A DNA stretch of 64,000 nucleotides from Alphaproteobacteria bacterium. GTDB lineage: Bacteria > Myxococcota_A > UBA796 > SXON01. The notes beneath the pieces are model-generated. The model was not told the origin of the DNA and searched no databases. It worked only from the letters and a program-made list of their open reading frames with translations. Location of the stretch: assembly GCA_040376425.1 (NCBI GenBank), contig JBEIQS010000002.1, positions 60,173-124,172 on the forward strand, read 5' to 3'. Positions 1 to 41,902 of this stretch are shown in pieces (position 1 is the stretch's first letter; each line of letters opens with the position of its first letter). A program made the translations under genes and the position numbers.

Positions 1-37
1 AATAGATGATGGACCGTCCGGACGGTACACTATCCCG

Positions 38-1584: not shown

Positions 1585-1601
1585 AGGTGAAGGACTTCTC
1601 T

Positions 1602-2150
1602 CTACACCGAATCAATCTTTTGCAGCACAACCACCTTTCGCGCCTTGCCTTCCACCGTGTAGCGTTCCACGTGGAACAGCGTGTAGCCGGGGGCGACCGG
1701 CGCCTCCTCTGTGGCCAGCATCAGCGCCAGAAAGCCCCCCGGACGAAGCAGACGCAGCCCCTCTGGAAGCAGCTCGGCAGGGGGCTTGTAGGCCCGGCTG
1801 ATTACCCCGTCGTAGCTTCCTGCAGGAAGCTCAGCGCTGTCCATGCAGTGCACCGTGGCATTCTTCAAGCCGGCCTCTGCCACCACCGTCTCCAAAAAGG
1901 TGGCACGTTTCTGCCGACGCTCCACCAGCTCCACCCGAGCCTCCGGAAAGGTGGCGGCCAGCACCACGCCCGGAAAACCTGCACCCGAGCCCAGATCGGC
2001 CCATCGTCCTGACACAGAAAGGTTTGCCACAGCCTTTTGTGAATCTTCAAAGTGCGGATCTACCGAACCTGGACCCACAAGATCCATCGCCTTCCGCCAG
2101 CGCTCCAACAGCTTCCGGTAGATCTGCAGCGGCTTGTCCATCGTGCGCAT
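1602..2150 (-). CDS. rsmG: 16S rRNA (guanine527-N7)-methyltransferase RsmG/GidB
   Basis: 182 aa. SAM motif DLGSGAGFPGVVLA followed by VELVERRQKRATFL matches the characteristic GidB layout. Confidence 0.85.
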   Translation of the reverse strand: MRTMDKPLQIYRKLLERWRKAMDLVGPGSVDPHFEDSQKAVANLSVSGRWADLGSGAGFPGVVLAATFPEARVELVERRQKRATFLETVVAEAGLKNATVHCMDSAELPAGSYDGVISRAYKPPAELLPEGLRLLRPGGFLALMLATEEAPVAPGYTLFHVERYTVEGKARKVVVLQKIDSV

Positions 2151-2178
2151 CTATCCCGCCGGGTTATAGGCCGCCCCC

Positions 2179-3582: not shown

Positions 3583-3600
3583 CCCCCCTCGGAGGTTGCC

Positions 3601-18230: not shown

Positions 18231-19366
18231 GCCCCTCCCCCGATGTGCAGCCCCACCACGTCCAAAACCAAGCCCAGCGGCGTACTTTCCTCCACAGAGA
18301 TCTCCACCCGCCCCGGCAGGCCATGGCCCAAGAGCAGCGGGCTCTCCCCCACCTCCAGCTCCACCCGCAGCCCCTCCGGGCCCGGCTCTTCTGCCACCGA
18401 GCGCACCTGCAGCGGCAGTGCGCCGAAGCGGATCCACGAGAATCCATCCAGGTACATCCTCGCGGACTGCCCCTCCTGCACCCGACCCGCCGCCGCTATC
18501 GGTAGCCAGGCCACCACCTGAAGGTCCGCCGTTGGCACCACCGTGGCCAGCCGCTCGCCCACCCCCACCCGCTGCCCAATGGTAAGCTGGCGTACCAAAC
18601 TCACCCTTCCGTCCACCGGTGCCCGGATGCGGTGGCGCTCCACCTGCTCCTCCCAGGCCGCCACGCGGGTCTCGGCGGTGGAAAAGGCCTCCTGCAAGGA
18701 AGTCAGCTCGTCGGTGAGTCCCCGGCGGCGTGTGTCCCGCGCTGCGGCATTGGCCCGGTGCTGATCCTGAAGCAAGGCCAATTCCTGGCGGGCTGCCGCG
18801 GCCGTGGCGGACAACGAGGCGAAGTCGGCACCCTCCGCCTGCACCTGCGCGGCGGAGATCCCGCCCGAATTCACCAGGCGCAACGCCGACTCATGGACCA
18901 GCTTCGCCTGCTGTGCCGCCACCTCCGCCACCTCCAGCCGGGAGCGTCCCACCCGCTCGGCCTGCGTCTCGGCCTCGGCCTCCGCCGCCAAGCGCGCCTG
19001 CTCCTCGCTCTGCCGGGCCTCCGCACTGCGCAGCCGCTGCTCTGCCGCGTCGCGACGCGCCTGCTCTTCCTCCAGCTTCAACCAGATATCCTGGGCATCC
19101 AGCTCGATCAGGATTTCATCCGCCTGAACCGGTCGGCCCAGCTCGAACAACACCCGCGCCACCTTGCCTTCCAGCGGGCTCTGGACCGGCGCGGCCAGAC
19201 TCTCGACCCGCGCCGTCGTGCTGGCCACACGTACGGTGAGCGGCGCCAGGGTAAACCACAAGGTCCACACAAATCCCAGGGACACGCACACAAAAATCCA
19301 CAGCAGCCAGCCGCGCGGGCTGTCCGCATTCAGGGAGCGCAGGGATCGGGTGAAGGGCAGGGGCAT
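18227..19366 (-). CDS. HlyD-family membrane fusion/secretion protein
   Basis: N-terminal TM helix, a long coiled-coil (EEEQARRDAAEQRLRSAEARQSEEQARLAAEAEAE), then a beta-barrel domain. First gene of the exporter triad. Confidence 0.8.
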   Translation of the reverse strand: MPLPFTRSLRSLNADSPRGWLLWIFVCVSLGFVWTLWFTLAPLTVRVASTTARVESLAAPVQSPLEGKVARVLFELGRPVQADEILIELDAQDIWLKLEEEQARRDAAEQRLRSAEARQSEEQARLAAEAEAETQAERVGRSRLEVAEVAAQQAKLVHESALRLVNSGGISAAQVQAEGADFASLSATAAAARQELALLQDQHRANAAARDTRRRGLTDELTSLQEAFSTAETRVAAWEEQVERHRIRAPVDGRVSLVRQLTIGQRVGVGERLATVVPTADLQVVAWLPIAAAGRVQEGQSARMYLDGFSWIRFGALPLQVRSVAEEPGPEGLRVELEVGESPLLLGHGLPGRVEISVEESTPLGLVLDVVGLHIGGGA

Positions 19367-27899: not shown

Positions 27900-29340
27900 G
27901 TTGTACTGCCCGGGAAAACCGAGGCCCTCCCATAGGGGACTCTCGGAATCGCATGGGGACCCCAGCATGTGTCCCACCGCGCACCCCTACGCAAAAAACC
28001 AACTGTTGCTTTAAGCCAAGGCGGCGCCCCCCGCTTCAGGGGCAGCCCATGCCCTATTGGACCGCCACCGGCACCCCCGCCGCCGCTTTCCTTACCCAGC
28101 AGCAAAAAGAGCAAACGCACGTCCTTTCCCGACGGGCTACGACATGGCCCCCCGGGCCGTGGCCCCCGCAGCTCCTTCAACCAACAACACTGCCTTCCGA
28201 CAGCGTCCGAACGGCCCCTTTCCCCACCCCGCTCCCTCTTCTCAGCCAACATCCCCCCGCTCCCGACATCCTCCCAAAAACCCGGAAAACCAGGCAAGGC
28301 GCCGCCCAGCAACACCCGGCACCACCCCCTCCCCCCGGTTTTCCCTCCAAACACTACTCCACTCACGACAAGCCCGCACCCGCTCCTCCAAATGCGTGCG
28401 GGGGCGTTCATTTCGGAGCTGCGTCCACCCCCTCCCACCCCCGCGGCCCTCCCCATCCGCGTTTTCCCGGCCAACACTGTTGGCTAACGACGCCCCGGAG
28501 AGTCCCCCGGAAATGGCTCCCCCCGTGCCCATTTCCAGCTCGGCCGCAGCCCCCCTCTTCCGACCCACTGAGGGCTTTTTCGGCAAACGCAAACTACTTA
28601 CGACAGCCCTGATCCGGCCCTCCAAATGGGCTCTCCCGTGCCCATTTGGCGCCCCTCCCCACCTGGCCCCCGCCCCTCACCCCGCCGGGGGGGGACCCCG
28701 CCAAAGGCCGTCCAGACCCCTGTCGTAAGCACTTTGCGTTTGTCAGGAAAACCACACCCTGGTCAGAATGGTCGGGCCGGTTAGGATGTGGGGGAGGGCA
28801 GACCCCGGCGCCACCCTCCCCAGCCCCGGCGGGAGTCCCCCTCCCGAAATCCGCCCCACCCGCACGGATTTCCAAAAAGCCATCGCGATGAAAAAATCGT
28901 TTGAATGGAAAACCAACCCCCGGTCAGAATTGTGACCAAGGCGGGAGCCACCAAAGCCCCGCTGGCGGCGTGCCGCAAAGCCCCTTCTCCCGCGCCCATT
29001 TCCAATCTTCAGGTCGCTTTTCGTCGTAAGCAGAATCCACTTGATCGGAAAACCGACCCCGGCCGCCTCACCCAGCCCTCCCACACCGCGTCGCAAGGCA
29101 AATGCAGTCCGTTTTGCCGCAGCTCTGCAGGCAAAATCCCTGCGTCGTCAGGCAGAGGGGTTTTCCGCGCTCGCGTCCACCTCTGACCCCGGCGGCCCCT
29201 ACCGGGAGTGCGTCGTAAGGCACATCTGTCACGTTTTCCGGCCCCCACAGAGGGAAGCACCCCGGGGCGAAGTGGACTCCCGAAAAAGACCTTCCCGGTC
29301 AGAAGGGGCGGGATAAAAGACCCATCCCCTGCCGAGGAAG
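27900..29340. repeat. ORF-poor, C-skewed region dense in short repeated motifs (GGAAAACC/GGTTTTCC, GTCGTAAG/CTTACGAC, GGTCAGAA, GAAAT-stem hairpins)
   Basis: Exact GGAAAACC at 27913, 28284, 28746, 28907 and 29047. Exact GGTTTTCC at 28337 and 29159. GTCGTAAG at 28722, 29023 and 29212. CTTACGAC at 28597. GGTCAGAA at 28761, 28922 and 29297. Confidence 0.75.
28584..28742. repeat. 23-bp inverted repeat pair (21/23 complementary) flanking 113 bp
   Basis: 28584-28606 is caaacgcaaactacttacgacag. 28720-28742 is ctgtcgtaagcactttgcgtttg, whose reverse complement is caaacgcaaagtgcttacgacag. Confidence 0.8.
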
Positions 29341-29342
29341 CC

Positions 29343-30179
29343 ATGAAGGAAGGTCAGCCCAGCACCACCGCCGAAGCCGTCGCGTTTTGGCGGGCCCTGG
29401 AGCAGCACTATCCCCCCGAGCGTCGCATTTTGGATGATGGTTGGGCGCATCATTTTATGACCCGGCACACGCGCGCACTTCTAAAAATGAACGGTAATCC
29501 TTGGATTATTTCTCAATCTGACCATGTTTTTGGTCTGGGGACGATGGTCTACACGCTGCTGAGGCATCGCTGGATGGACCTTGCTTTTGAGCGTGCGGCC
29601 GGGCCCTTGGAACAGGTGCTGATTTTAGGTGCCGGCTACGATATGCGGGCCTTTCGCCTAAATTTTGGCGATGCGAAGGTCTTTGAGATCGATCATCCGG
29701 CCACCGGTGGCCGCAAAGCCCGCAAGGTGGCCACCTTGGGGCGCCCGGATCCTGTCCATCGGATCTCCGTGGACTTTTCAACCGAGAACCTCGCGCACGC
29801 TCTGGAGCGCGCAGGCTTTCAAAAAGACCGTAAATCCTGGTTTTTCTGGGAAGGAGTCTCTATGTACCTGCCGGAAGCGGCGGTGCGCTCCACCCTCACG
29901 GTTTTGTCCTCCTGGGGTTGTGAGGGGGTGCTGGACCTCTACGCGCCTCTGGAACATCCCGGTCTGGGTGGCTTCTACCGCCGTACCCTGCCCAGAGTGG
30001 TAGAACTCGTGGGAGAACCTGTCGATTTCCTCCTCCGTCCCGAACATGGCGAAGCCTTCGCCCGCGAGCTGGGCTTCCGCGTGCAGGCACTGGCAACCCA
30101 CCGGGATCTCCGCCTCCTTTCCCCACGCCCCGCCGCGCCCAACGAGAGCGGCTGGCTGATGCACCTGGTCCCCGCCTGA
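29343..30179 (+). CDS. Class I SAM-dependent O-methyltransferase, LCM (leucine carboxyl methyltransferase, PF04072/TIGR00027-like) family
   Basis: Trimmed to ATG 29343. Motifs VLILGAGYDMRAFRL, VFEIDHPATGGRKARKV and WFFWEGVSMYLPEAAV match my recollection of the LCM family. Confidence 0.7.
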   Translation: MKEGQPSTTAEAVAFWRALEQHYPPERRILDDGWAHHFMTRHTRALLKMNGNPWIISQSDHVFGLGTMVYTLLRHRWMDLAFERAAGPLEQVLILGAGYDMRAFRLNFGDAKVFEIDHPATGGRKARKVATLGRPDPVHRISVDFSTENLAHALERAGFQKDRKSWFFWEGVSMYLPEAAVRSTLTVLSSWGCEGVLDLYAPLEHPGLGGFYRRTLPRVVELVGEPVDFLLRPEHGEAFARELGFRVQALATHRDLRLLSPRPAAPNESGWLMHLVPA

Positions 30180-30208
30180 GCACTGCTCGGACCGCGCGCC
30201 CACCGCCC

Positions 30209-30246
30209 ATGCGCGCCCGCGCATTCCCACGATGCGCGCGCATCGT
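30209..30246. promoter_or_regulatory. Two adjacent GC-rich palindromes sharing the ATGCGCG half-site
   Basis: ATGCGCG-CC-CGCGCAT at 30209-30224, and the perfect 18-mer ACGATGCGCGCGCATCGT at 30229-30246. They lie 30 nt after the methyltransferase stop and upstream of peptide gene A. Confidence 0.4.
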
Positions 30247-30368
30247 CTGGCTACCCCTGACCTTGCAATAATCGGCCTTGGTCCGTTCGGGGGAGCCGGC
30301 ATGGCCCTTGCATAAGGGGAGTACAGCCGGATGAAGCCCGCTCCGGCCCACACCCAAGGAAGGACCCC

Positions 30369-30470
30369 ATGACCAAGCCCCTCTCGCTCACCGACTGCAA
30401 GCGCATCGTGACCCCCTCTGTCCGCACCGGCGTGCGCGCTGGGACTGGCAACGGTCGCTTCCGCTTCTAA
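30369..30470 (+). CDS. 33-aa peptide A (MTKPLSLTDCKRIVTPSVRTGVRAGTGNGRFRF), candidate modified-peptide precursor
   Basis: Hand-translated. ATG is 4 nt after AAGGAAGGA, with a TAA stop. A paralogue lies 231 nt downstream with synonymous-biased divergence. Not in the ORF track because it is under 60 aa. Confidence 0.6.
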   Translation: MTKPLSLTDCKRIVTPSVRTGVRAGTGNGRFRF

Positions 30471-30479
30471 CAAAAATCT

Positions 30480-30516
30480 CTGCGGGAGGGAGAGCCCCTC
30501 TCCCGCAGCTTTCTTC
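30480..30516 (+). terminator. Hairpin plus pyrimidine/T-rich tail after peptide gene A
   Basis: ctgcgggag (30480-88) pairs with ctcccgcag (30500-08) and is followed by ctttcttc. Confidence 0.45.
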
Positions 30517-30599
30517 ACCAGGGTGAGAGCCCCACCCCGGTGAGCCCAACCTGCAAGAGCCGAGAGCCCCGGCTCCTGCTTCCCCCCTCCGAGGATCCC

Positions 30600-30701
30600 A
30601 TGCAAAAGCCCCTTTCGACGGCCGACTGCAAGCGAATCGCCACCCCCTCCGTCCGCACCGGTGTGCGTGCAGGAGCCGGCAACGGTCGCTTCCGCTTCTG
30701 A
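30600..30701 (+). CDS. 33-aa peptide B (MQKPLSTADCKRIATPSVRTGVRAGAGNGRFRF), paralogue of peptide A
   Basis: Hand-translated. ATG is 4 nt after GAGGA, with a TGA stop. 28/33 residues are identical to peptide A. Confidence 0.6.
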   Translation: MQKPLSTADCKRIATPSVRTGVRAGAGNGRFRF

Positions 30702-30708
30702 CCTTGGC

Positions 30709-30769
30709 GCGGGAGAGAGAGCCCCTCTCCCGCCCTCCTCTCCCCGGGGCGAGAGCGCCGCTCCGGGGA
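30709..30769 (+). terminator. Two consecutive GC-rich hairpins between peptide gene B and the oxygenase gene (attenuator/terminator candidates)
   Basis: gcgggagag (30709-17) pairs with ctctcccgc (30725-33). tccccgg (30741-47) pairs with ccgggga (30763-69), with an inner ggcg/cgcc pairing. There is no clear U-tract. Confidence 0.4.
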
Positions 30770-30851
30770 ACCCCCTTCATGTGCTCTGGCCGGTCTCGGC
30801 TCGGTGGCGCAGGTACCGGCCGGAGCCATCTCTTTCGGTTAACGGCAAACG

Positions 30852-32024
30852 ATGGAAGCGCTGGCGACTCACCTGAAGCAGTTGATGGCGGCACGGCAGC
30901 CCACGGTGCTCCACCGCAAGGCCCGCCTGATGCCCCCATCCTGGGCCTTTGACCTGGCACAAGCCGCTACGGAACGTAGCCTCGCGGGGGTGCCCGGTGC
31001 GCGCATGCGGCTGTACGGCAACGGCCAAGAGCTGCCGCTGAACGCGGCGCTGCTGCCCCGGGCCGGGGACGCCAACCTCGCCGGCTGGTTGGAGCGAGTC
31101 CAGCTTCGAGATCCCGGTTTGGTCGTGAACAATGTCCAGTGCCTCCGCCCGGAGGTCTGGCGCTGGGTGCGACAGCTTCTGGGAAACCTGTTTGCGCAGG
31201 AAATGCCCGCAGGCGGTTGCAGCCTGGAGATTTTCACCGGCCGCTATCGCCAGAGCTTCTTCGGCCTCCACAAAGACGACCAGGATGTGGTTACCTTTGT
31301 ACTGGAGGGGACCAAGGTATTTTACGTCTGGCCCTTTGAAGTATTCAGTGCGCTTGCGCCGGGCCTGCAGCCCCTGGGCAACCACAGCCTGCCGGAGGTG
31401 GACTGGCGCCAGCACCTGGATCTGGCCATGCGCCTGGAGGCGCGTCCGGGCGACATCGTCTACTGGCCTGCGGAGGCCTGGCATATCGCCGCAGCAGACG
31501 ATCCCGAGCTGCTCACCACCACCTTGGGCCTGGGTTTTTTCCGGGGCGGCAACCCTGCCCAGCTCTGCTCCGATGCGGTGACGGCCGCCCTCGCCGAGGG
31601 GGAAAGCCCCGAGCTTCCCCCCTTCCAGCGGGATGCCATTCCGCAGAGGGTGGAGCAAATTCTTGCCTTCCTCGCCCAAGCTTCGGTACGCGAGCGTACG
31701 GAGGAACAACTCCTCTCCTGGCTCACCGGCTACGGCTTTACCACCCTGCCAGAACCGGAAGAGCAGACCGAGGTTCCTCCGCGGTTTCGGGCCGTTGCAC
31801 GAGGGGGAATCAGCTCTCTCCCCCGTGGATCTCAGCGGGTGGTGGGCGCCTGTGGCCGCCTCTTCCACATTCCCGAGCACGCCTTCCTCGTCGATCTTCT
31901 GAATGCCCTGGCGTCGGGCGCCACCCTGCACCGCAATGCCTGGCAGCACGACGAGGTGGCCCCTGAAGTGGTGGACTGGCTGCTCGTGGAGCTGCTGTCG
32001 GTGAGCGCGATCGAAGCAGCCTGA
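30852..32024 (+). CDS. JmjC/Cupin_4 Fe(II)/2-oxoglutarate oxygenase, ribosomal-oxygenase (YcfD/RoxA)-like architecture
   Basis: GLHKDDQDVVTFVLEGTKVFYVW (HxD) is followed about 70 aa later by VYWPAEAWH. The C-terminal LLNALASGATL...VVDWLLVELL parallels the ALDALASN...winged-helix tail of E. coli YcfD as I recall it. Confidence 0.7.
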   Translation: MEALATHLKQLMAARQPTVLHRKARLMPPSWAFDLAQAATERSLAGVPGARMRLYGNGQELPLNAALLPRAGDANLAGWLERVQLRDPGLVVNNVQCLRPEVWRWVRQLLGNLFAQEMPAGGCSLEIFTGRYRQSFFGLHKDDQDVVTFVLEGTKVFYVWPFEVFSALAPGLQPLGNHSLPEVDWRQHLDLAMRLEARPGDIVYWPAEAWHIAAADDPELLTTTLGLGFFRGGNPAQLCSDAVTAALAEGESPELPPFQRDAIPQRVEQILAFLAQASVRERTEEQLLSWLTGYGFTTLPEPEEQTEVPPRFRAVARGGISSLPRGSQRVVGACGRLFHIPEHAFLVDLLNALASGATLHRNAWQHDEVAPEVVDWLLVELLSVSAIEAA

Positions 32025-32027
32025 GCG

Positions 32028-34298
32028 CTACTCCTGCCGCACCTCCACCGTCACTGTGGCGGTGCCGCCGCCCCCATCCATCACCATGATCTGATGGACG
32101 CCCGCGGCGGGAATCCACCACAGGCGCTCCCCGTTGCCCTGCCCCCACATCTTGCCGTCCACAAACCAGGTGTAGGGCGCGTCTCCGCCCACACTCTCCA
32201 GCGGCACCTCCTGATCGTCGGCGGGCATACCGGGGATCAGGCTCAGCACCATGCCGGGGGAGGGGGAGCGGATGCTGGGTCGCCCCGCCGGGGCCTCGCA
32301 ACCGATGGCCCACGGGGGCACTTCGGACTCCGAAGAAAATCGGCTTCCCAGCCATGCTTTGACCGTGGCGGGCCAGGCCACCCGCGACTCCACCCGGCTG
32401 GGGCCCTGCCGACAGGCGGGGTGTACCCGAAAGCCGCGGACATCGATCTCCACGTTTTTGTGGTAGGGACAGGCCTCCGTCGGTACTTTTTCGACCCGGG
32501 CCAATGCGGTCCGCTGCTCGCCGCAGGCGGTGCTCGGCGGGTGACCGGACAGTGCACAGACCCGTACCGGCACCAGCTCGGCCGGTGCCGGGTCTTCGGA
32601 GCGCACGCGGTCATCCAGTCCGTCCAGCAGGTCAAAAAGCAGGGGGGCCGCCACTTCCGAGCCGATCAGGTGGGAGGAGCTGGAGTTGTCGAGGTTTCCC
32701 AGCCAAACCACCACGGTGTAGCGCTCGCCGGAGCCCACGGCCCATGCGTCCCGGTTTCCAAAGGAGGTTCCTGTCTTCCAGTGGATACCTGCGGGCATGG
32801 CCACCGCCGCACGGGTGGGAAAGTCGGGTCGGTCCCGCAGCCGCAGGGCGCGCCGGGTCAGCCAGGCCGCTCCCGGCGAAAGTACAGGCGTTCCCTCCAT
32901 CTCTTCGCTGTTGGCCTGCCAGCGCAGGGGCCGGTAGTGCCCGTCTTCGGCCAGTGCCGTGTAGAGCCCGGCCAGCTCCAAAGGCGTCAGCTCCACCCCG
33001 CCGGCCACCAGGGAGAGTCCATAGTAGCCCGGGTTGCCGTTCAGGTGCTTCACCCCTCCCTTTCTCAGCATCCCCAAGAAGGGCTCCACCCCCACCTGCT
33101 GCAGCAGGTGGATGAAGGGCACGTTCAGGGAGCGCGACAGCGACTCCTCCAGGCTCACCATGCCCGACCAGGTTCCATCATAGTTTTCGGGGCTGTAGCT
33201 GCCGAAGTGTACCGGCGCATCGGGGACCAGGAAGCCCGGCAGCGCGATCCCGCGGTCGATGGCGGCCGCGTACACAAAAGGTTTGAGAGTGGAGCCCGGC
33301 GACCGGGGCTCGTCGAAGGACAGAATCTGTCCCCCATGCTCCCGGTCCCAGAAGTCGAAATTGCCCGCCAGGGCCCGCAGCTCCGCGCTCTTGTGGTCCA
33401 CCACCACCACCGCCACGTTGTGGATACCCTCCGCAGCCCGCTCGGCGCGCACCCGCTCCAGCACTTTTTCGACACGACGCTGAAGACCCCCGTCCAGGGT
33501 GCTCCGCAGCCGCGAAAGACCCGGCAATTTCCGGTGCATCCACAGGGCCGCATGGGGCGCCAGGCGGGGGATGGTCTGGATGCGGGCCGGAACCGGAGGC
33601 AGGGGATCGGTAGAGGGAGCATAGACCCCGGCCGCCTCCAGACGGTACAGAATCTCGGCACGCGCTGCCGTCAGGCGGGCCTCATTTTCCGGGCTGGGAA
33701 AGCGCCGGTTGGGGTCCTGCGGCACCGCCAGCAGCGTGGCCACCTCGGCGCGGCTCAGGTCTTTGGCACTGTGCCCGAAGTACCAGAACGAGGCGGCCTC
33801 GATCCCCTCCACGTTCCGCCCGAAGGGCAGGTAGCTGAGATATTGTTCAAGGATCGCCTCTTTGCCTAGACGGATCTCCAGTTGCAGCGCCCGGGTGGCC
33901 TCGATGGCCTTGGAGGTCAGCACCCGCGGTCGGGGCTCCAGCATCCGCGCCAACTGCATCGTCAAGGTGGAGGCCCCGGACACCACCCGTCCTCTGGCCA
34001 CATTGCTCGCCACCGCCCGGCCCACCGCGATCGGGTCCACCCCCATGTGCCAGGGGAAGCGCTCATCCTCCAGCGCGAACAGCGCCCGCAGGTAGTCGGG
34101 GTCCACATCCGCCCGCGTCGCCGGGATTCGCCACTTTTGATCCCCGGACAGAAAGACGTGGGCAGCGCTGCCGTCGCGGTACAGCACCACGGCGGAGTCC
34201 TGGCCCAACATCCGCGGGGGCAGCGGCCACAGCCAGGCGCCCAAGACGCTCAGGGAGAGCAGCAGCAGGGAGGCGACCAAAAGTCGGGGCGAAATCAT
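32028..34298 (-). CDS. pbpC: Penicillin-binding protein 1C (bifunctional transglycosylase/transpeptidase)
   Basis: Trimmed to ATG 34298. GT51 motifs EDERFPWHMGVD and GASTLTMQLAR, transpeptidase SPGSTLKP, and the PBP1C-type C-terminal domain. Downstream of the alpha-2-macroglobulin gene. Confidence 0.85.
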   Translation of the reverse strand: MISPRLLVASLLLLSLSVLGAWLWPLPPRMLGQDSAVVLYRDGSAAHVFLSGDQKWRIPATRADVDPDYLRALFALEDERFPWHMGVDPIAVGRAVASNVARGRVVSGASTLTMQLARMLEPRPRVLTSKAIEATRALQLEIRLGKEAILEQYLSYLPFGRNVEGIEAASFWYFGHSAKDLSRAEVATLLAVPQDPNRRFPSPENEARLTAARAEILYRLEAAGVYAPSTDPLPPVPARIQTIPRLAPHAALWMHRKLPGLSRLRSTLDGGLQRRVEKVLERVRAERAAEGIHNVAVVVVDHKSAELRALAGNFDFWDREHGGQILSFDEPRSPGSTLKPFVYAAAIDRGIALPGFLVPDAPVHFGSYSPENYDGTWSGMVSLEESLSRSLNVPFIHLLQQVGVEPFLGMLRKGGVKHLNGNPGYYGLSLVAGGVELTPLELAGLYTALAEDGHYRPLRWQANSEEMEGTPVLSPGAAWLTRRALRLRDRPDFPTRAAVAMPAGIHWKTGTSFGNRDAWAVGSGERYTVVVWLGNLDNSSSSHLIGSEVAAPLLFDLLDGLDDRVRSEDPAPAELVPVRVCALSGHPPSTACGEQRTALARVEKVPTEACPYHKNVEIDVRGFRVHPACRQGPSRVESRVAWPATVKAWLGSRFSSESEVPPWAIGCEAPAGRPSIRSPSPGMVLSLIPGMPADDQEVPLESVGGDAPYTWFVDGKMWGQGNGERLWWIPAAGVHQIMVMDGGGGTATVTVEVRQE

Positions 34299-34403
34299 CG
34301 GATTCTGCCTTATATATCGTTTCGATATATATTGAAACGAGACATAGTTCCTCTTCAACGGAGAAGGGAAAGCCCCCAAAGGGGGCCTCCCCTCCCACCG
34401 ATC

Positions 34404-37400
34404 TCAGTCGCGCAGGGGCAGAACCACCGCGGATCCATTGCCCAGCCGGGCCCAGATCTCGGGGTCGTACATGGCCTCCGCAGTTGCGCCCGGCAACACA
34501 AAGCTGCCTGCGGTCACCGCGCGGACCTGGTAGACCACATCCACCGTGCCCCGGCTCTGCACGGTGCCGAACATCTCCACGCGGTCGTCACGCACGTTCA
34601 TATGGTCCACCGCCCACAGCTCCTCCGCCTCCTGCCAGTCGGGCATCCCACCCCGACCCAGGCGGGGGTTCTCGATCTCCCAGCCTGCGGGCACGCGGTC
34701 CACCAGGGCAATGTTGTCCATGGTCATGGCGGTGGTGTTGGTCAGCTCCAGCTTGACATAGATCAGGTCGCCCAAGCGGGGCTGTCCGGAGAGCGGCTCG
34801 CCATCGGGCCGGTGGTAGCTGCGCGTGACCTGGAGTCCCTCTCCGCCGGTGGGCCGGTCGTCCACCTTCAAGGTGCCCTCCATGGTGCTGACCAGGTACA
34901 GCTTCCCACCCAGGTTGTCGTTCACCTGCATGCTCAGGTCGTCGGCATTGCTGCCACGCTCCACCTGCCAGGTGGCGTTGTTGCCCTTGGTCTGACCGGG
35001 CTTCAACGTGGCACCATCGCGGCTGACAACCGGTGCCTTGAAGCCGGTGGGGGCCTTGCCCACGGACTTGCCGAGGCCGGTGATCGCCCAGGCCAGCTCC
35101 TGAGTGGTGTAGCCCCAGTCGGGCAGGCGCATCAGCGCCGAGCCCACCGCGTCTGCCATGGCGTCGCCCGCCGGGTCGTCGCCGAAGAGGTCGCGGAACA
35201 TGGACAGGCGCATCCCGCGCTCGCGCAGGTCGGAGTAGAAATTCCACCCATTGTAGCGACGCATCAGAATGGCCGAGCTGTCCGGCTTCCGCAGCTCGGT
35301 CTGGTAGCGCCGATCGCCCCCCAGGTACATCGCAGCCTTCAGCACCATGTCGGTCTCGTTCGCCCAGTAGAAGGAGCCGTTCACCCGCTCCAGCATGGCC
35401 GCTGCCTGCGCCGGACGCCCTTTTCCGCCCAATGCAAGTACATAGTGGGCGTATGCGCTCTCGCTGGTTCCCGCGAGGCTGTTGCTCTCGGTGACCCGCT
35501 CCAGGTAGGTCAGCGCATCGGCCAGGGCTTCTTCGTTCACCGGATAGCCCGCCTTCTTCGCATCCAATAGTGTGTGGGTGGCGTAGGCACTGCCCCAGGC
35601 AGCCGGCTCAGAGCCGCCCGGCCAGTAGGAGAAGCCACCGGAGGGGGTCTGCATCGACAGCAGGCGCTCCACCCCACGCTGGACCAGATCTTCCAGCTTG
35701 TCCTTCTTCTCCGGTCGAATGCTGTCCATCAGCTCGCCGATGTACAGGAGCGGCCGGGTGGAGGAGGAGGTCTGCTCGATGCAGCCGTAGGGGTAGCGGA
35801 TCAGGTACTCCATCCGCTTCAAGGCAGGTGCGTAGGGGTTGGTGGTCACCCAGAAGCTGGTGGAGTCGGTGCCAGGAATGAAGGCAGAAAGCTGATCCTT
35901 CAGGTTGGTGACCCCGGCGGGCAGGGCGATGCGGCGGACCTCCCGAGCCGGGGGGCGGGGAGGCTGCAGCGGAATCTCCAGCTCCTCGTGCGACTCCAGG
36001 TTGCCGGCCTTGGCCACCACACGCAGGCGGGCTCCGCCGGTGGCCGCCAGACCCTTCATGTGGAAATAGACCGATCCTCCCTCATCTTTCCCCAACTTCA
36101 GGCTGCCACCGCCGGTGATCTCCACCGGGTTCTTGGCACCCGCAATGCCCTCCACCTCTACCTTCACCGTCACATTCTGCGGGGAACCGGACATATTCGT
36201 GATGCGCACCGGCACATCGGCCTCGTCCCCCATCAGGAGGAAGCGCGGAAGGGTGGTCTGAAGCACCAAGGGCTCGCGTACCTTCACCTTGGCCGAGGCC
36301 CGACCCACCTTGCTGCGGCCGGTCGCTACCGCCATCACCCGCAGCTCGCCACGATAGCCAGGAACATCCAGGCTCACCGATGCCTTTCCATCGGGGCCCA
36401 CCTGCACCGGACCGGACCAGAGCGCCACCGGCTTCACCATCTGCACGCGGCCTCCCGCCCCTGCGGCGTCACCGCCGGTCTGTTTGCCGGAGCTGCCCGG
36501 CGCAAAGAGAAGGGTCCAGCCGATGGTCTCGTAGCCGCTCACCCCCAGGGCCCGGCGGGCAAAGAGGTCTCTGTTGGGATCGGGGTCCTGGAATTTTGTC
36601 AATGACAAAATCCCCTCGTCCACCGCCGCCACCGTGACCCAAGTGGGCTCGGTGGTGGCACCCAGATCCAGATCCACCTTCAGCGGCGAATAGGGCCGGA
36701 TCTCCGCAGGAACCGAAAGCTTCAGCTCAGAGGTGAAGGCGGTGGGCTCCACCCGCACCGACTTCACCCCGAAGGCGCGGTCGGGCAGGAAGGCCTGGGC
36801 GGACTCCATGTGCGGGTCCTTCACCACCAGCGCGCCCACGTACAGGTTGGGCGCAAAGGAGGTGACCGTGAATTCCCAGGTATTTTCGCCGGGCTTCACG
36901 TCCTTCCAGGCGTACTGCTGCACGCTGTCGGTCTCTACCGTGTACAGCACCCGCCCCGCAAAGGGCGCGTTGATCTTCACGGGAACCGTATCGCCCACCT
37001 TCACATTGTCGGGGAGCTGCACCGCAAGCGACTTGGGGGCCTCGGGACGGGGGGTTTCATCCACGGACATGTCGAAGTCCCACCACCACCAGCGCATGCC
37101 TCCGGGCAGGTAGTACTCCGTGTGCGCCTTGCCGCTGTCCACCACAACCAGCCAGCCGGAGCCGCGGTTTCCGGGGGTCAGGTCCAGGGTGAAGCTGCCG
37201 TCCGCCGCACTGACCACTTCCTGCTCGCTCTCTTTGGACCGACGCAGATAGCGCCGGTAGGTGCTGCGATAGCGCTCCGCATCCCAGGTCCAGACACTCT
37301 CCTCCTGGAGCTGGAGCACCTGCACGGACAGCTTCTTCTGGCCGGATTGGGGCTTGCCCTCCCAGTCCACCACCTTGCCCTCGAAGCGCACGGGGGTGCC

Positions 37401-40043
37401 GGACTCGGCGCGCTCGGCGGAGGTCTTCAGGCCGATATAGAACTTTTCGGGGTGTACGGGCACTTCTGCGGTCGCTACGGTGCTGCGGCCGCTGTCCCCC
37501 TCAAACACGGAGGTCTGAGCGATCAGCACCGAGGGAGTGGCCAACCCGGCCAGAGCTCGCGTGGTAGGGCAGGAAAGTGTTCCTTGCCCCAGCATATCCA
37601 GCTCGCCATCCACCTGGCCCAGGCTCAACAGTCGGCTGTTGTCGTCCCCCGACAAGGAAGCCGGACCAAAGCGGAAGCCCTCCAGGCCGGGCGGATCGAA
37701 GGGGCGGGGCTCCACCCGGCAGTCCAACTGGTAGCGGCTGCCATCGGCGGGCGCCCCAAAGAGCCAGGCCGCGTCCACCTGCACGTCCATCGCATCCGTG
37801 GGCAGGTAGGCCGCTTTTTTGGCCTTGGCGCTGGCGCGCATGCGCTCCGGCACAAACTCCTCCACCTGGAAGGAGAGCGAGCCGATGGAGCGCTTGGCCA
37901 CCTCCAGGCTCACCGTCCACCGACCGGTGGTGGCGGAGTCCGAGAAGGGCATATCCCAGTTGAGCAGGCCTGCCGCATTCACATTCAGCACTTTCTGCCG
38001 CACGATTTTCCCTTGCGGATCGCGAAGCAGGGCCATCACCGGCACCGACTCGGCCGGGGCAGAGTTCTGCTCGTCGCGCACCACCGCCGAGAGGTGGGCG
38101 GTGTCTCCCGGGCGATAGACGCCGCGATCCAGGTAGGGGGCCGCCCGGTAGGGCTGCTCGGTCTGGTAGGGCAGGCCGCCCACATCGCCCTCGATGGGGA
38201 TCTGCAGGTCGGCGAACTTCAGGTAGGTCAGGTCGCTCCCCTTCTTCGCCACCACGGCCATCGGCGCGCTGGTGTCGGCTTCGTCCTGCTTCACCTCCAC
38301 CTTGCAGTGGCCGTCTGAAGCCGTGGAGCAGGTGCCCAGGACAAAGCCCGAAGGCCGCACCAGCTTGATGTCCACCCCGCCGATGGGCTGGTTGTCGTGT
38401 ACGTCGATGGCCCAGACATCCACCCCCGGGGTCACCTTGTCCTTGGGCCCGGTGCCCGAAGTCTTGGCCAGCAGGTGCATGTCGGTGCGGAGCAGGCGCG
38501 CGGTGGCCTCGGCGGAGGCCTGCTGCCAGTCGTCGGAGGAGGGGGTGCGGCGGCCGGTGTCCTCGTTCTCCTCCTCGGCCTCCTCCCCCTCCGCGGCAGG
38601 CTTGCTGGGGTTGACCTTGATCAACTGAAGCTCATAGACGCCGTTGCCCACGTCCGGGACCAGCGAGGCCACGTCCACAAAGGAGGTGGTCGTGGTGTCC
38701 AAGGGGGCCGCCAGCGGAAATTCTGTATCCAACACTACATTCGAGCTGCGCTCGTCGGCGCGCTCCTGGCCGGACATCCAGAAGACCAGGTTGGCCTCGG
38801 GAATGTGGCGCACGCGCAGGCGCACGCGCTCCACGTTGGTGTGGACCACCGGCAGGTTGCGCCAGGCCGAGCGCGGAAGGTAGCGGCCGGAGGAGGCGAA
38901 CTGCAGCTTGGGCGTCCGGTGGGGGATGTCGAGCTGCGCCTCGTGGCGGCGCACCAGGCTGCCGCCGTCCTCGGTGATGGCGCCCCCGTCGATGGTGGCC
39001 TGGTAGGAGGTGCCCGGCATGAAGTCGCCAAAGATGCGGAAGCCCGCCTCGCCCGGCGCCATGCTCAGATTCTCGACGGCAGGGGAGAAGTGGACGGCAG
39101 ACTTGAGCATGTCCGCATCCAACACACAGCGGGTGGAGACCTTGTACTCCTCCCAGGACTGCCGGTCGTACCACCAGGTCTTCTCGGGAACCGCGTCGTC
39201 ATCGCAGATCACATCCAGGTAGAAGCCGTTGGCACCTTCGCGGGCCCGAACGGCCTTGATCACCATGGGGTGCTGCCCGAACTCCAGGGTCAGCGACGCC
39301 GTACTACGGGGAGCGCGGACATTGCCGCCGCTCATGCCCACCTCGGGCACCTTGATCTGGACCTGAACCGGTACGGGAGCTTCCTGGCCGAAGATCGAGT
39401 CGTTGATCTCGACGATCACCTCGTAGGGGTTGCTGCCCGGTCCCACCTTGCCCGTGGTGGGGATCCCATCCAGGGTCAGCGGCAGCTCGGCGGGCAGGTC
39501 CGCAGGGGCGCCCGCCCAGGACAGGGCCACCTTCACCATGCGCTGCTTCTTCTCCCAGGCCACCATCTTGGCATTCAGGAATTGGAACACCGGGGTGCGG
39601 AATTGGTGAGACCAGCCCGGGCCCTCCGGAGGCTTGAGGGGCTTGACCTCGGTGTCCTTGCTCACCACCGACTTCAGGGTGACGGTATAGGGAGTATTCG
39701 GCTTAAAAGCCTCGGTAGGCCGGAACACCAGGGTCCAGCGGTCCTGTACCGTCAGGCTGCCTTCCACCGCGGGACTGATCTCCAGAACAGTGCCTTCGGG
39801 AGGCGCATTCCCCACCTCTGCGGCCCCAAACATGGGGGTGCGGGAGCTGACCACCAGCGCCTCGGGCAGGGAGTCTGCAGGGCCACGCACGCGAATCGCC
39901 AGGTCTACACCCGGAGCAAGGTCGGTTTCAAACTGGCTTTCCGCAGGAGTGCTGCTGGATGCCTCTGGGCCGGAGGAGGAGAAAGACGGGACTTGCTCTG
40001 CAAGCTTGGAGCAACCGAGGGTCAACACGAGGAGGCTGTACAT
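34404..40043 (-). CDS. Bacterial alpha-2-macroglobulin (YfhM-like) lipoprotein with thioester
   Basis: Trimmed to ATG 40043 (lipobox LTLGCS). About 1880 aa, with the thioester motif YPYGCIEQTSS. Confidence 0.9.
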   Translation of the reverse strand: MYSLLVLTLGCSKLAEQVPSFSSSGPEASSSTPAESQFETDLAPGVDLAIRVRGPADSLPEALVVSSRTPMFGAAEVGNAPPEGTVLEISPAVEGSLTVQDRWTLVFRPTEAFKPNTPYTVTLKSVVSKDTEVKPLKPPEGPGWSHQFRTPVFQFLNAKMVAWEKKQRMVKVALSWAGAPADLPAELPLTLDGIPTTGKVGPGSNPYEVIVEINDSIFGQEAPVPVQVQIKVPEVGMSGGNVRAPRSTASLTLEFGQHPMVIKAVRAREGANGFYLDVICDDDAVPEKTWWYDRQSWEEYKVSTRCVLDADMLKSAVHFSPAVENLSMAPGEAGFRIFGDFMPGTSYQATIDGGAITEDGGSLVRRHEAQLDIPHRTPKLQFASSGRYLPRSAWRNLPVVHTNVERVRLRVRHIPEANLVFWMSGQERADERSSNVVLDTEFPLAAPLDTTTTSFVDVASLVPDVGNGVYELQLIKVNPSKPAAEGEEAEEENEDTGRRTPSSDDWQQASAEATARLLRTDMHLLAKTSGTGPKDKVTPGVDVWAIDVHDNQPIGGVDIKLVRPSGFVLGTCSTASDGHCKVEVKQDEADTSAPMAVVAKKGSDLTYLKFADLQIPIEGDVGGLPYQTEQPYRAAPYLDRGVYRPGDTAHLSAVVRDEQNSAPAESVPVMALLRDPQGKIVRQKVLNVNAAGLLNWDMPFSDSATTGRWTVSLEVAKRSIGSLSFQVEEFVPERMRASAKAKKAAYLPTDAMDVQVDAAWLFGAPADGSRYQLDCRVEPRPFDPPGLEGFRFGPASLSGDDNSRLLSLGQVDGELDMLGQGTLSCPTTRALAGLATPSVLIAQTSVFEGDSGRSTVATAEVPVHPEKFYIGLKTSAERAESGTPVRFEGKVVDWEGKPQSGQKKLSVQVLQLQEESVWTWDAERYRSTYRRYLRRSKESEQEVVSAADGSFTLDLTPGNRGSGWLVVVDSGKAHTEYYLPGGMRWWWWDFDMSVDETPRPEAPKSLAVQLPDNVKVGDTVPVKINAPFAGRVLYTVETDSVQQYAWKDVKPGENTWEFTVTSFAPNLYVGALVVKDPHMESAQAFLPDRAFGVKSVRVEPTAFTSELKLSVPAEIRPYSPLKVDLDLGATTEPTWVTVAAVDEGILSLTKFQDPDPNRDLFARRALGVSGYETIGWTLLFAPGSSGKQTGGDAAGAGGRVQMVKPVALWSGPVQVGPDGKASVSLDVPGYRGELRVMAVATGRSKVGRASAKVKVREPLVLQTTLPRFLLMGDEADVPVRITNMSGSPQNVTVKVEVEGIAGAKNPVEITGGGSLKLGKDEGGSVYFHMKGLAATGGARLRVVAKAGNLESHEELEIPLQPPRPPAREVRRIALPAGVTNLKDQLSAFIPGTDSTSFWVTTNPYAPALKRMEYLIRYPYGCIEQTSSSTRPLLYIGELMDSIRPEKKDKLEDLVQRGVERLLSMQTPSGGFSYWPGGSEPAAWGSAYATHTLLDAKKAGYPVNEEALADALTYLERVTESNSLAGTSESAYAHYVLALGGKGRPAQAAAMLERVNGSFYWANETDMVLKAAMYLGGDRRYQTELRKPDSSAILMRRYNGWNFYSDLRERGMRLSMFRDLFGDDPAGDAMADAVGSALMRLPDWGYTTQELAWAITGLGKSVGKAPTGFKAPVVSRDGATLKPGQTKGNNATWQVERGSNADDLSMQVNDNLGGKLYLVSTMEGTLKVDDRPTGGEGLQVTRSYHRPDGEPLSGQPRLGDLIYVKLELTNTTAMTMDNIALVDRVPAGWEIENPRLGRGGMPDWQEAEELWAVDHMNVRDDRVEMFGTVQSRGTVDVVYQVRAVTAGSFVLPGATAEAMYDPEIWARLGNGSAVVLPLRD

Positions 40044-40245
40044 GGTCTTCCTTAAAGGGGGGATGGCCCCGAGCACAGGTCTTAGCAAGAGCCGTGCCGA
40101 AGGGCACGCCTATTTTGATGGGAGGAATTCGTTGCTTCCCGCGCCGAGTCGGCCGACACTCTCTACGATTAATAGATCGAATTCTATCAGTCCCGCCCCG
40201 GTCGCCCACCGCGGCGAAGGGGATATACTGTGGGCGGGAGTGGCA

Positions 40246-41898
40246 ATGGTCCGCGACGAGACTGCGATCTACATCCATGTGGCACCTGAGTTCGGCGGGG
40301 GAAAGCTGGGGCCCTTCCCGGACATGGAAGTGCGCTTCGGAAGCGACAAGGGTCGGGTGCATGTGCATGTTCCCGAGGATTTCGGCGTGGCCAAGGAGCA
40401 CGCCAAGATCATCCGGCAGATGGAAGGCTCGCTGATCCTGTCGCCCGTGGAACGCACCGCGGCCGTTTTTGTGTGGAAGGGAGATGCACGCCGCCCCACT
40501 CAGGTGCTGACCCCCACCGCCATTCGGCATGGTGACTCCTTCGCGCTGGTGAATGCAGAGGGGCCGAAGTTCATCGTAGAGCTTGGGAAGATGCCGGTCG
40601 ACCCCCGCAAGGGCACCGACACCCGCTCCATGATGCGCAAACGTTTTACGGTCGCGGGCTTCTTCGCCGAAGTGCAGCGCGTGATCATGGCCACCCTGTA
40701 CACCTTCTCCCCCGTCGCTATGGCGGCGCGGGCGAAGATGTTGTGGGAGTCCGGCTACATCTTCACCCCGCGCTTCATCGTGAGTGCGCTGCTGCTCCTC
40801 TCTGGCTATCTGATGATGGCCCCCACAGGCTGTTATGCGCTTCGATCCCGGAGCTTGCTGGGGAAGAGCGACGAGACGCTCAAAAACTGTCGCGCCCAGT
40901 TGGATGCGCTGGGAGGGGTGGCCGGCACCGACGCCATGGATCTGCCGCCGCGAAAGCTGATCGGCTCGATCATGACCGACACGCGGCTGCTGGCCCTGCT
41001 GGAAAAAGACAGCGACTTCTACGCGAAGGTGAAGGGCCGCGCCCGAAACCTGATCGGCAACTCCTCCGAATATGAATGGTTGTACAAGGAGAACAGCTCC
41101 GAGGCCGTTGCATTCGGGCGCTGGCGGGAGGCCGTGGCGAAGACGGAGGGGCTCGACAACAGCACGCAGAAGTTGGTGCCCTACTTGGCCGCAATTCCCA
41201 ACCTTGGAAATGGGGACTTCGGGCCCGTGCTGGACTCGCAGGAGGAGTACGTCTGTGGGCGCGGCCCCCTGCGGCTGACCTGGCGACAGGCCAAGGCCTT
41301 GGGCATGGATGCGGCCCTGGATGCCTACGTCACCGGCGATCTGTCGCCCACCCAGGACGAGCTGAAGCGCTCCGACCTCCTGAAAAAAACCGCCACAACC
41401 GCGCAAAATCCCGGCATCCTTGGCGATCCGGCGGTGCTCCTCCCCAGCGAGGCCAAAGACCTGCTGGCCGGGCAGTCCTCCTGTGTGGTCGAGCTGGCCG
41501 GAGACGACCGCGAGGATATTCCCGCGTTGAAGAAGATGTTGGCGGACCAGCTTGGCACCAACGCCGGGGGACTGCCCGACGGGGAGAACAGCATCGGCGC
41601 CGGTCCAGCCCGCATTGCCCGCTATTTTGCAGCGGATGTGCCGCTGATCCACTTTGGCGGCGGCCTAGGGACCCAGATCAATTTCAACAAGCCCACCCTC
41701 AGCGACGCGCTGGATGGGGTGCCCAAGAGCAGTTGGATGTTGGATCGCACCGCGGAAGTGGTGGCGAGGGCCGTGGTGTTGCCCTGCGTGGCGGCGCTTA
41801 CCCCCAAAGACCAGCATCCCCGCCTCGAAAAGGTCTTCGGGACGCTGCCCAACCCCGTGATGTGCCTGGTGCTGAACTACAAGCTGGCCAACGAGTAG
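40246..41898 (+). CDS. FHA-like domain membrane protein
   Basis: Trimmed to ATG 40246; the 702-aa ORF would overlap the A2M gene. The N-terminal 115 aa follow an FHA-like pattern (VRFGSD...GVAKEHAKI...GSLILSP...IRHGDSFAL...FIVE), followed by 2 TM helices and an unassigned domain of about 350 aa. Confidence 0.45.
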   Translation: MVRDETAIYIHVAPEFGGGKLGPFPDMEVRFGSDKGRVHVHVPEDFGVAKEHAKIIRQMEGSLILSPVERTAAVFVWKGDARRPTQVLTPTAIRHGDSFALVNAEGPKFIVELGKMPVDPRKGTDTRSMMRKRFTVAGFFAEVQRVIMATLYTFSPVAMAARAKMLWESGYIFTPRFIVSALLLLSGYLMMAPTGCYALRSRSLLGKSDETLKNCRAQLDALGGVAGTDAMDLPPRKLIGSIMTDTRLLALLEKDSDFYAKVKGRARNLIGNSSEYEWLYKENSSEAVAFGRWREAVAKTEGLDNSTQKLVPYLAAIPNLGNGDFGPVLDSQEEYVCGRGPLRLTWRQAKALGMDAALDAYVTGDLSPTQDELKRSDLLKKTATTAQNPGILGDPAVLLPSEAKDLLAGQSSCVVELAGDDREDIPALKKMLADQLGTNAGGLPDGENSIGAGPARIARYFAADVPLIHFGGGLGTQINFNKPTLSDALDGVPKSSWMLDRTAEVVARAVVLPCVAALTPKDQHPRLEKVFGTLPNPVMCLVLNYKLANE

Positions 41899-41902
41899 GC
41901 CC

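Follow-up and report, generated by a model that had tools for sequence, protein, structure and literature searches.

Two open reading frames (ORFs) of 33 codons each stand in tandem in a 64,000-nucleotide stretch of contig JBEIQS010000002.1 (assembly GCA_040376425.1, positions 60,173 to 124,172 of the forward strand), here called the window. In a genome of 65% GC such short frames raise two questions: are they genes at all, and, if so, what do they serve? The source records leave the encoded peptides without a name or call them 'hypothetical protein'. Judged by their codon substitutions, the two ORFs are real genes under protein-level selection. They are followed by a gene for a JmjC/cupin oxygenase, and we consider it probable that they are tandem paralogous precursor or substrate peptide genes of a two-gene cassette of the kind that makes peptides that are made on the ribosome and modified after translation (RiPPs), with this oxygenase as the modifying enzyme. 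The cassette is rare, unnamed and found mainly in Myxococcota, and the ORF pair is best understood as part of an undescribed JmjC-dependent RiPP-like cassette from an uncultured Myxococcota lineage.

The initial annotation had compared the two ORFs codon by codon and read the excess of synonymous change as a sign of translation. Our recount returned the same differences: seven synonymous (codons 5, 12, 17, 21, 23, 24 and 25) and five replacements (T2Q, L7T, T8A, V14A and T26A), with five synonymous changes to one replacement in the last 19 codons, and different stop codons (TAA in ORF1, TGA in ORF2) at a conserved length of 33 codons. Nucleotide differences fall 4, 4 and 11 times at the first, second and third codon positions, and the Nei-Gojobori method gives proportions of synonymous (pS) and non-synonymous (pN) differences of 0.385 and 0.106, with dN/dS of 0.21 (Fisher p ~0.005). 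DNA identity is 81% within the ORFs and 17-50% in the flanking 30-nt blocks; it drops at the ORF borders, so what was duplicated and conserved is the reading frame as such. A properly spaced Shine-Dalgarno sequence precedes each ORF. With so few sites the window pair taken alone gives suggestive, modest support for coding, and it is the orthologues that decide the matter.

A search with the concatenated peptides and the neighbouring gene both led to close relatives, and the coding alignment comprises 11 copies, six of copy 1 and five of copy 2 (from the window and loci L001, L003, L005, L007 and L008). Copy 1 of the window and copy 1 of L001 differ by 13 synonymous changes and no replacement (Fisher p=3e-9). 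Among orthologues dN/dS is 0-0.23 for copy 1 and 0.06-0.48 for copy 2, and 19 of the 25 variable columns of copy 1 are third codon positions (p=1.6e-5). As a control we scored all six frames: the sense frame is stop-free, with 17 synonymous-only against 5 replacement codon columns, while the other frames contain stops and have 1-2 synonymous-only against 20-21 replacement columns; of the antisense frames, the one sharing third positions scores 14 against 8 and has a stop. Distant homologues encode the same amino acids with different codons. The codon-aware test on orthologues thus bears out the claim of translated ORFs under purifying selection, and the intact copies among the 11 compared have no frameshift and no stop. 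That neither a structured RNA nor chance ORFs should account for the pattern, as had also been argued, agrees with there being a single stop-free, mostly synonymous frame. The picture of a constrained C-terminus and a looser N-terminus holds within the clade but not across the wider family, in which the conserved parts are the middle VR[TS]GΦRAG and the N-terminal ΦTΦxDL.

The signatures of the two paralogues are independent of lineage (MTKPLSLTD in copy 1, MQKP[LI]S[TM]AD in copy 2), which points to an old duplication with both copies maintained. In L003 copy 2 has decayed to MNKPMKRTPLPVFF followed by a stop codon, and because it is lost there it is dispensable. Two observations on the ORF sequences stand apart. 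The final five codons (GGT CGC TTC CGC TTC) are almost without synonymous change in the 11 copies, while the other Arg codons of the ORF vary freely; an RNA-level constraint or a codon preference may be behind this. GGAAGGACC, in the region of the ORF1 Shine-Dalgarno sequence (30356-30364), is paired in the minimum free energy (MFE) fold with GGUCGCUUCC (30453-30462), in codons 29-32 of the same ORF.

The earlier reading of the ORFs stands, yet it left unmentioned the partner enzyme that is the key to their interpretation. Pfam places the 390-aa product of the downstream gene in JmjC_2 (26.3 bits, cutoff 22), with Cupin_8 under its family cutoff, and an exhaustive HMMER search with it returned 910 representatives at E <= 1e-3, mostly of about 400 aa and 30-41% identical. 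H140, D142 and H211, which form the HxD...H iron triad, are invariant in homologues, and K155, the 2-oxoglutarate-binding lysine 13 residues past D142, is invariant or nearly so; by these residues the oxygenase is predicted to be catalytically intact. Full-length Foldseek searches with the AlphaFold2 model (pLDDT 91.8) gave NO66, Rhodothermus YcfD, E. coli YcfD and MINA53 as the best PDB matches, then YxbC and FIH, with probability 1.0 to NO66, YcfD and FIH. The C-terminal 95 residues, modelled in isolation, fold into four β-strands and then three helices (pLDDT 92.1), and their top Foldseek matches are the RiPP recognition element (RRE) domains of McbB, ThcOx, LynD, TigE, TbiB1, PbtF and MccB, interleaved with winged-helix domains of ribosomal oxygenases (ROX). 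A mirror ORF of exactly 390 aa overlaps the gene in antisense (30777-31949, -), and its profile of GC content at third codon positions looks more 'coding' than that of the true gene. This antisense frame, the choice of a crude filter on that composition, was ruled out as a gene by the homology and the confident structure model of the plus-strand gene; it is a caution on composition-based gene calling in this genome.

Peptide and enzyme are linked from whichever side the search begins. JmjC-homologue loci were fetched from genomes and metagenomes, 87 loci of roughly 900 JmjC representatives, and a homologous small ORF lies directly upstream of the JmjC gene in L009, L010, L011, L015, L016, L017 and L022, whose enzymes are only 31-38% identical to that of the window. 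When the peptide was the starting point, its profile, run against 5.8 billion proteins, yielded only 16 clusters, none with an informative name, and in five look-ups (P0001, P0002, P0159, P0161 and P0167) a JmjC-like gene follows immediately downstream wherever the flank sufficed. Neither Pfam nor NCBIfam has a model for the peptide family, and full-text literature searches found no paper describing it. In the family alignment G-x-R-A-G is invariant, and an N-terminal Φ-[ST]-Φ-x-D-[LC] block is common to the distant peptides and the short ones of the window (PLSLTDC there). The overall pattern is x-Φ-T-Φ-x-D-L ... V-R-[TS]-G-Φ-R-A-G, after which come two or three [KR][FY] dipeptides; the C-terminus varies in length and always keeps these basic-aromatic dipeptides. 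Conserved blocks with a variable tail are the two-part layout of a RiPP precursor, with a putative boundary between leader and core, and the short ORF adjoins a modifying enzyme in at least seven lineages, as RiPP genes do.

The pair also appears to be kept and lost together, because in L101 (JGI Ga0673005_0001033, 1526-3105) decay of the enzyme coincides with changes at peptide positions that are otherwise invariant. The JmjC gene of this locus is a pseudogene with two frameshifts and one in-frame stop, and of its peptides one carries V18D and the other A24T and F33S. Mutated peptide 1 of L101 was also met in a second sample, L102.

The cassette might work as follows; docking of the peptides, hydroxylation of a side chain, the residue concerned and the role of the product are all predictions drawn from sequences and models. 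Transcription would start at a σ54-type promoter ~55 nt upstream of ORF1, with a regulator on two palindromes, as their conservation suggests. Both peptides would be translated from their own Shine-Dalgarno sequences; selection acts on the proteins, and translation is predicted. Stem-loops after the peptide genes and before the enzyme gene may stabilise or partly terminate the transcript, favouring expression of peptide over enzyme. The RRE-like C-terminal winged helix of the oxygenase would dock the peptide through PΦ[ST]ΦxD[LC] ... VR[TS]GΦRAG, and the JmjC domain would then hydroxylate a side chain, preferably that of an Arg or Lys residue within the [KR][FY] dipeptides of the C-terminus (RFRF here). 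We put the chances of this target at about even; it is preferred because BipG/BpmG/PbsQ and PhaI, a PF08007 enzyme of the proteusin phaeornamide, hydroxylate ornithine, which in biphenomycin originates as Arg in an F-R-F core (PMC12707348, PMC12257519, PMC8784127). The invariant Arg of Φ-R-A-G, comparable with Arg81 in V-R-M-G of uL16, seems a distinctly less likely site, and an aromatic residue may be a further alternative, as with CzlI, the JmjC Phe hydroxylase of curacozole (PMC11575548). Φ-R-A-G may double as a cleavage site of the double-glycine type, with a C39 exporter lying in the window; this step, cleavage and export of the peptides alike, is speculative.

Wider proposals are tentative and, on balance, rather unlikely. 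A ribosomal-oxygenase-like JmjC enzyme with a built-in docking domain and its own peptide could be a self-sufficient two-gene module that has no protease or exporter dedicated to it, in which JmjC oxidation would define a new RiPP class. Alternatively, the hydroxylated peptide could be an intracellular signal for O2, Fe or 2-oxoglutarate, following a bacterial version of FIH/HIF logic and possibly under σ54 control, or the module could be a bridge between ribosomal-protein hydroxylases and RiPP tailoring enzymes.

Several points weigh against a RiPP-like cassette. No conserved protease or exporter stands beside it in the compared neighbourhoods; the TldD/PmbA genes near L095 and the C39 transporter of the window, 12 kb off, are not general, so a classical route of leader removal and export is putative. 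The RRE-like domain is matched in Foldseek at weak E-values (0.06-1, at probabilities of 0.9-0.98), and the same C-terminal domain is present in ROX enzymes that act on ribosomal proteins and is thus not specific to RiPPs. At two mismatches the σ54 pattern is not enriched in the window (20 found, 22.8 expected); since the pattern alone is not above chance, the promoter call draws on conservation and position only. Pfam scans of plausible ORFs found no gene for an enhancer-binding protein in the window. As all close orthologues are metagenomic, poor assembly is in principle conceivable for L101, but the long intact genes beside it (methyltransferase, 322 aa; PBP1C, 756 aa; α2-macroglobulin, 1879 aa) argue otherwise. 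Finally, translation of the peptides, their binding by the enzyme and a product of +16 Da are all at the stage of prediction.

The explanation that best survives beside the RiPP-like cassette makes the enzyme a housekeeping ribosomal-protein hydroxylase of the YcfD/RoxA type. The peptides would then imitate a basic, glycine-rich loop of a ribosomal protein, as regulators, decoys or competitive inhibitors, and would not be product precursors; we regard this explanation as quite unlikely. Ribosomal oxygenases hydroxylate Arg or His in such loops, and they, including uL16 arginyl hydroxylases, are the best structural matches of the enzyme. In an automatic JGI annotation the fragment from L101 bears the name 'ribosomal protein L16 Arg81 hydroxylase', and the lack of a conserved protease or exporter fits as well. 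After verifying the uL16 sequence (known substrate loop VRMGKGKG), we found that VRAGTGNGRFRF of the window peptide aligns without gaps to VRMGKGKGNVEY of E. coli uL16, which holds Arg81 (shuffle P ~0.02). The best PDB match of the peptide profile, a non-significant one, is a loop of uL4, KTGIRAGKGKMRGRRY (E=0.76). However, the likeness to uL16 is not significant in other family members (P 0.04-0.9), the enzyme shares 17-20% sequence identity with YcfD, and a cassette with 16 peptide clusters that is gained, kept or lost jointly in scattered lineages suits a housekeeping role poorly. Identity of the enzyme as a uL16 hydroxylase is doubtful.

If the ORFs instead encode independent small proteins, regulatory or stress-related, their adjacency to the JmjC gene would be functionally meaningless. 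Purifying selection says that the peptide matters and not what it does, and its modification is a prediction, so both facts leave room for this view. We hold it to be improbable all the same: the adjacency persists in at least seven lineages with such divergent enzymes while all other neighbours differ between the distant loci (kinases, GDPD, an FHA regulator, an aminotransferase and others), only 15-20 nt separate peptide and enzyme genes in L010 and L017, and both decay jointly in L101.

The RNA around the ORFs suggests another role, that of regulatory leader peptides (upstream ORFs) controlling the JmjC gene by transcription attenuation through hairpins. Conserved stem-loops follow each ORF, and one of these resembles a terminator; ahead of the enzyme gene comes a long conserved hairpin (Table 1). 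The spacer between ORF1 and ORF2 is 87% identical among orthologues, with compensatory changes at four base pairs of its hairpins, and the long hairpin is kept in six orthologues, even those without H1' and H2', and shows G-U changes and one compensatory change. All four copies of the nonamer GAGAGCCCC in the window stand here, inside a span of 240 nt, and Rfam has no family at E <= 1 for 30100-30900. Attenuation is nonetheless very unlikely, as attenuator peptides are selected at a few regulatory codons, whereas here amino acids are conserved over the whole length and codons vary. Moreover, the peptide is recognisable in distant homologues of other length that lack the hairpins (L010 and L017, with their short gaps), alternative terminator and antiterminator pairings could not be constructed, the hairpins folding independently, and the gene is present in two tandem copies.

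Last, that the ORFs are chance frames in a repeated non-coding element or structured RNA, an idea fed by the long spurious ORFs common on both strands of DNA this rich in GC and by the repeated hairpins nearby, is effectively refuted by the orthologue codon tests and frame controls given above, along with protein-profile matches among 5.8e9 database sequences at E-values of 1e-8 to 1e-21 and the empty Rfam result.

Upstream of ORF1, conservation was judged in five orthologous regions, among them L006, which has a different upstream gene. The centres of the two palindromes are 21 bp apart, and the L008 version of the σ54-type element is the exact consensus TGGCACGGGCCTTGCA.

Table 1. Coordinates of the peptide genes, RNA and promoter elements and neighbouring genes of the window, with upstream peptides of other JmjC loci (positions in those rows are those of the locus).
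Feature	Position	Strand	Remarks
Peptide gene 1 (ORF1)	30369-30470	+	33 aa, MTKPLSLTDCKRIVTPSVRTGVRAGTGNGRFRF; purifying selection and family membership computed
Peptide gene 2 (ORF2)	30600-30701	+	33 aa, MQKPLSTADCKRIATPSVRTGVRAGAGNGRFRF; old paralogue, weaker constraint, dispensable
JmjC/cupin Fe(II)/2-oxoglutarate oxygenase gene	30852-32024	+	390 aa; ribosomal-oxygenase-like three-domain architecture; Pfam JmjC_2/Cupin_8
C-terminal domain of the oxygenase	31737-32021	+	β-β-β-β-α-α-α, winged-helix/RRE-like (model, Foldseek); proposed peptide-docking domain
Palindrome 1	30209-30224	.	ATGCGCG-CC-CGCGCAT; candidate enhancer-binding-protein site, putative function; conserved in five orthologues
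Palindrome 2	30230-30245	.	CGATGCGCGCGCATCG, perfect 16-mer; half-site ATGCGCG common to palindrome 1; putative function
σ54-type -24/-12 promoter-like element	30297-30312	+	CGGCATGGCCCTTGCA (GG-N10-GC); conserved in all orthologues
5'-untranslated region hairpin	30326-30347	+	GCCGGA...TCCGGC; stem invariant in 5 orthologues; in MFE fold
Shine-Dalgarno of ORF1	30356-30364	+	AAGGAAGGA; read from sequence; kept in orthologues
Hairpin H1	30480-30508	+	11-bp stem, heptaloop AGAGCCC, then CTTTCTTCAC; terminator-like; one compensatory pair (UA to CG)
Hairpin H2	30514-30544	+	Loop AGAGCCC; compensatory CG/UA exchange in 2 of 6 sequences
Hairpin H3	30553-30579	+	Loop AGAGCCC; just 5' of the ORF2 ribosome-binding site; two pairs with compensatory changes
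Shine-Dalgarno of ORF2	30591-30595	+	GAGGA; read from sequence
Hairpin H1'	30709-30733	+	Copy of H1 past ORF2, loop AGAGCCC
Hairpin H2'	30742-30768	+	Copy of H2, loop AGAGCGC
Long hairpin	30779-30841	+	GCTCTGGCCGGT...ACCGGCCGGAGC and U-rich tail CTCTTTCGGTTA; directly 5' of the enzyme gene; nearly invariant; candidate attenuator or processing site
Second ABC-ATPase protein	13471-15606	-	
C39 ABC transporter	15525-18437	-	970 aa; N-terminal Peptidase_C39, catalytic motif QTSSMDCG (QxxxxDCG)
HlyD-family adaptor	18227-19366	-	
LCM/TIGR00027 SAM methyltransferase	29208-30179	+	Directly upstream of the peptide genes, promoter region between
PBP1C and α2-macroglobulin genes	32028-40088	-	PBP1C: transglycosylase, transpeptidase, BiPBP_C; α2-macroglobulin: 1894 aa
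L010/L016 upstream peptide			MENKD...PAITIADLEAREKQTEGQNLRIRSGVRAGAGRFAGPGR[YF]
L011 upstream peptide			...VTLETLVASESRSAARHLRVSTGIRAGGGEWYGKFAKGR
L015 upstream peptide			...IRITAADLEACERATETRNLAVRTGLRAGAGAGKYAGKF
L017 upstream peptide			...TAVTAADLLQADRAAQRRNAVRTGLRAGADNGRFGRF
L022 upstream peptide			...PLTADDLAALEQRTERQNLAVRSGVRAGTLKYRYRF
L009 upstream peptide (partial)			...ALAVRTNLRAGLSEAGKYAKFAKY
L023 upstream peptide	~2210-2440		NHLP-like; ...LSDSALEMVAGG / KGDSYDCHESKGG...; leader end ...MVAGG
L028 upstream peptide	22-213		...KKVKGG /
L042 upstream peptide	3696-3848		...RKVTGG /
L013/L020 upstream peptide	~4503-4694 / 3503-3694		Cys-rich; MKKKMKLETLKVKSF...

The genes next to the cassette were weighed as further members. 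The methyltransferase gene lies upstream in the window, L001, L007, L008 and L101/L102; it was rejected as a member, another gene taking its place in L006, where the peptide is 97% identical, and all distant loci lacking it. It is probably unrelated to the cassette, though it may serve a function limited to this clade, C-terminal carboxyl methylation for example. Convergent to the JmjC gene, with 3 nt between the stop codons, are the genes for PBP1C and α2-macroglobulin. Genes pbpC and A2M form a well-known pairing; lying on the opposite strand and conserved only in close relatives, they too were rejected.

Other neighbours deserve mention as observations in their own right. The export genes at 13471-19366 (-) resemble an exporter of double-glycine-leader peptides. 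In L095 (1198-4060), of the L017/L095 lineage, two genes for PmbA/TldD-family proteases share the strand of the peptide-JmjC pair and are placed upstream of it, a GDPD gene coming between; proteases of the TldD type remove leaders in the maturation of biphenomycin and microcin B17. At 39790-43039 (+) a 702-aa ORF without a Pfam match is followed by a PF22558 'restriction endonuclease associating with ARP'/PD-(D/E)XK protein, which may together be a defence gene pair. Directly upstream of more distant JmjC homologues (~30-33% identity) stand small leader-type ORFs of other kinds (L023, L028, L042 and L013/L020 in Table 1), and an association with RiPPs may extend broadly through the wider enzyme family.

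What follows from the locus is first that two frames of 33 codons in a GC-rich genome are genuine, selected genes. For an enzyme that one JGI record ties to uL16 by name, the adjacent peptide rather than uL16 is the likely substrate, and related JmjC genes in Myxococcota, Acidobacteriota and other metagenome-assembled genomes may be likewise misnamed. The cassette offers a compact pair of one peptide and one enzyme in which to study how JmjC enzymes recognise peptides through an RRE-like winged helix, and it may open a way to short, hydroxylated Arg/Lys-Phe/Tyr peptides of predatory bacteria. With so few clusters among billions of proteins the family is rare, so its practical reach is modest unless the product proves bioactive or regulatory.

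JmjC enzymes of the PF08007 family are known to modify RiPP precursors (PMC12707348, PMC12257519, PMC8784127, PMC11575548), and a 2025 paper noted fusions of RRE and JmjC (PF08007) domains in bacterial settings that resemble those of RiPPs (PMC12710340). The comparison with PbsQ, BpmG and the other characterised RiPP JmjC enzymes draws on their published descriptions. Closest in outline are the biphenomycin clusters (BipA/PbsA with BipG/BpmG/PbsQ), which share short tandem precursors with a C-terminal Phe/Arg core (FRFRS there, RFRF here) and a JmjC-type Fe/2-oxoglutarate enzyme that acts, here putatively, on a basic residue between aromatics (PMC12707348, PMC12257519). Unlike them, the window peptides end in ...GNGRFRF and have no FHAFRF motif (PMC12257519), and Pfam scans of plausible ORFs turned up in the window neither an MNIO with its partner nor an arginase, a B12-radical SAM enzyme or a neighbouring TldD; a B12-radical SAM gene is met only near L010, ~2 kb off on the other strand. 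BipG and PbsQ depend on the prior conversion of Arg to ornithine, whereas here the JmjC oxygenase is the only conserved enzyme and has an RRE-like domain of its own. Membership in the biphenomycin group was rejected on the joint absence of FHAFRF, MNIO, arginase and B12-radical SAM.

PhaI and CzlI belong to the same Pfam or structural family as the window enzyme and also act on ribosomally made precursors (PMC8784127, PMC11575548). They differ in being accessory tailoring enzymes of large multi-enzyme clusters, with precursors of the NHLP type and a cyanobactin-like type, respectively. With YcfD/RoxA, NO66 and MINA53 the likeness is one of fold, the best Foldseek matches extending over the JmjC, helical dimerisation and C-terminal winged-helix domains; identity is 12-20%, the partner here is a dedicated, co-varying small peptide gene, and resemblance to the uL16 loop is weak. 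Peptides with double-glycine leaders and C39 exporters (bacteriocins, NHLP/Nif11 proteusins) share Φ-[RKT]-[AG]-G before a variable tail, and distant JmjC homologues adjoin peptides whose leaders end in ...VKGG, ...VTGG or ...MVAGG, but the window transporter is distant from the peptide genes and not conserved near the family, so that cleavage of this kind is speculative here. JmjC tailoring of RiPPs is thus known; what is new is the precursor family and a minimal architecture in which the JmjC oxygenase is the sole conserved partner.

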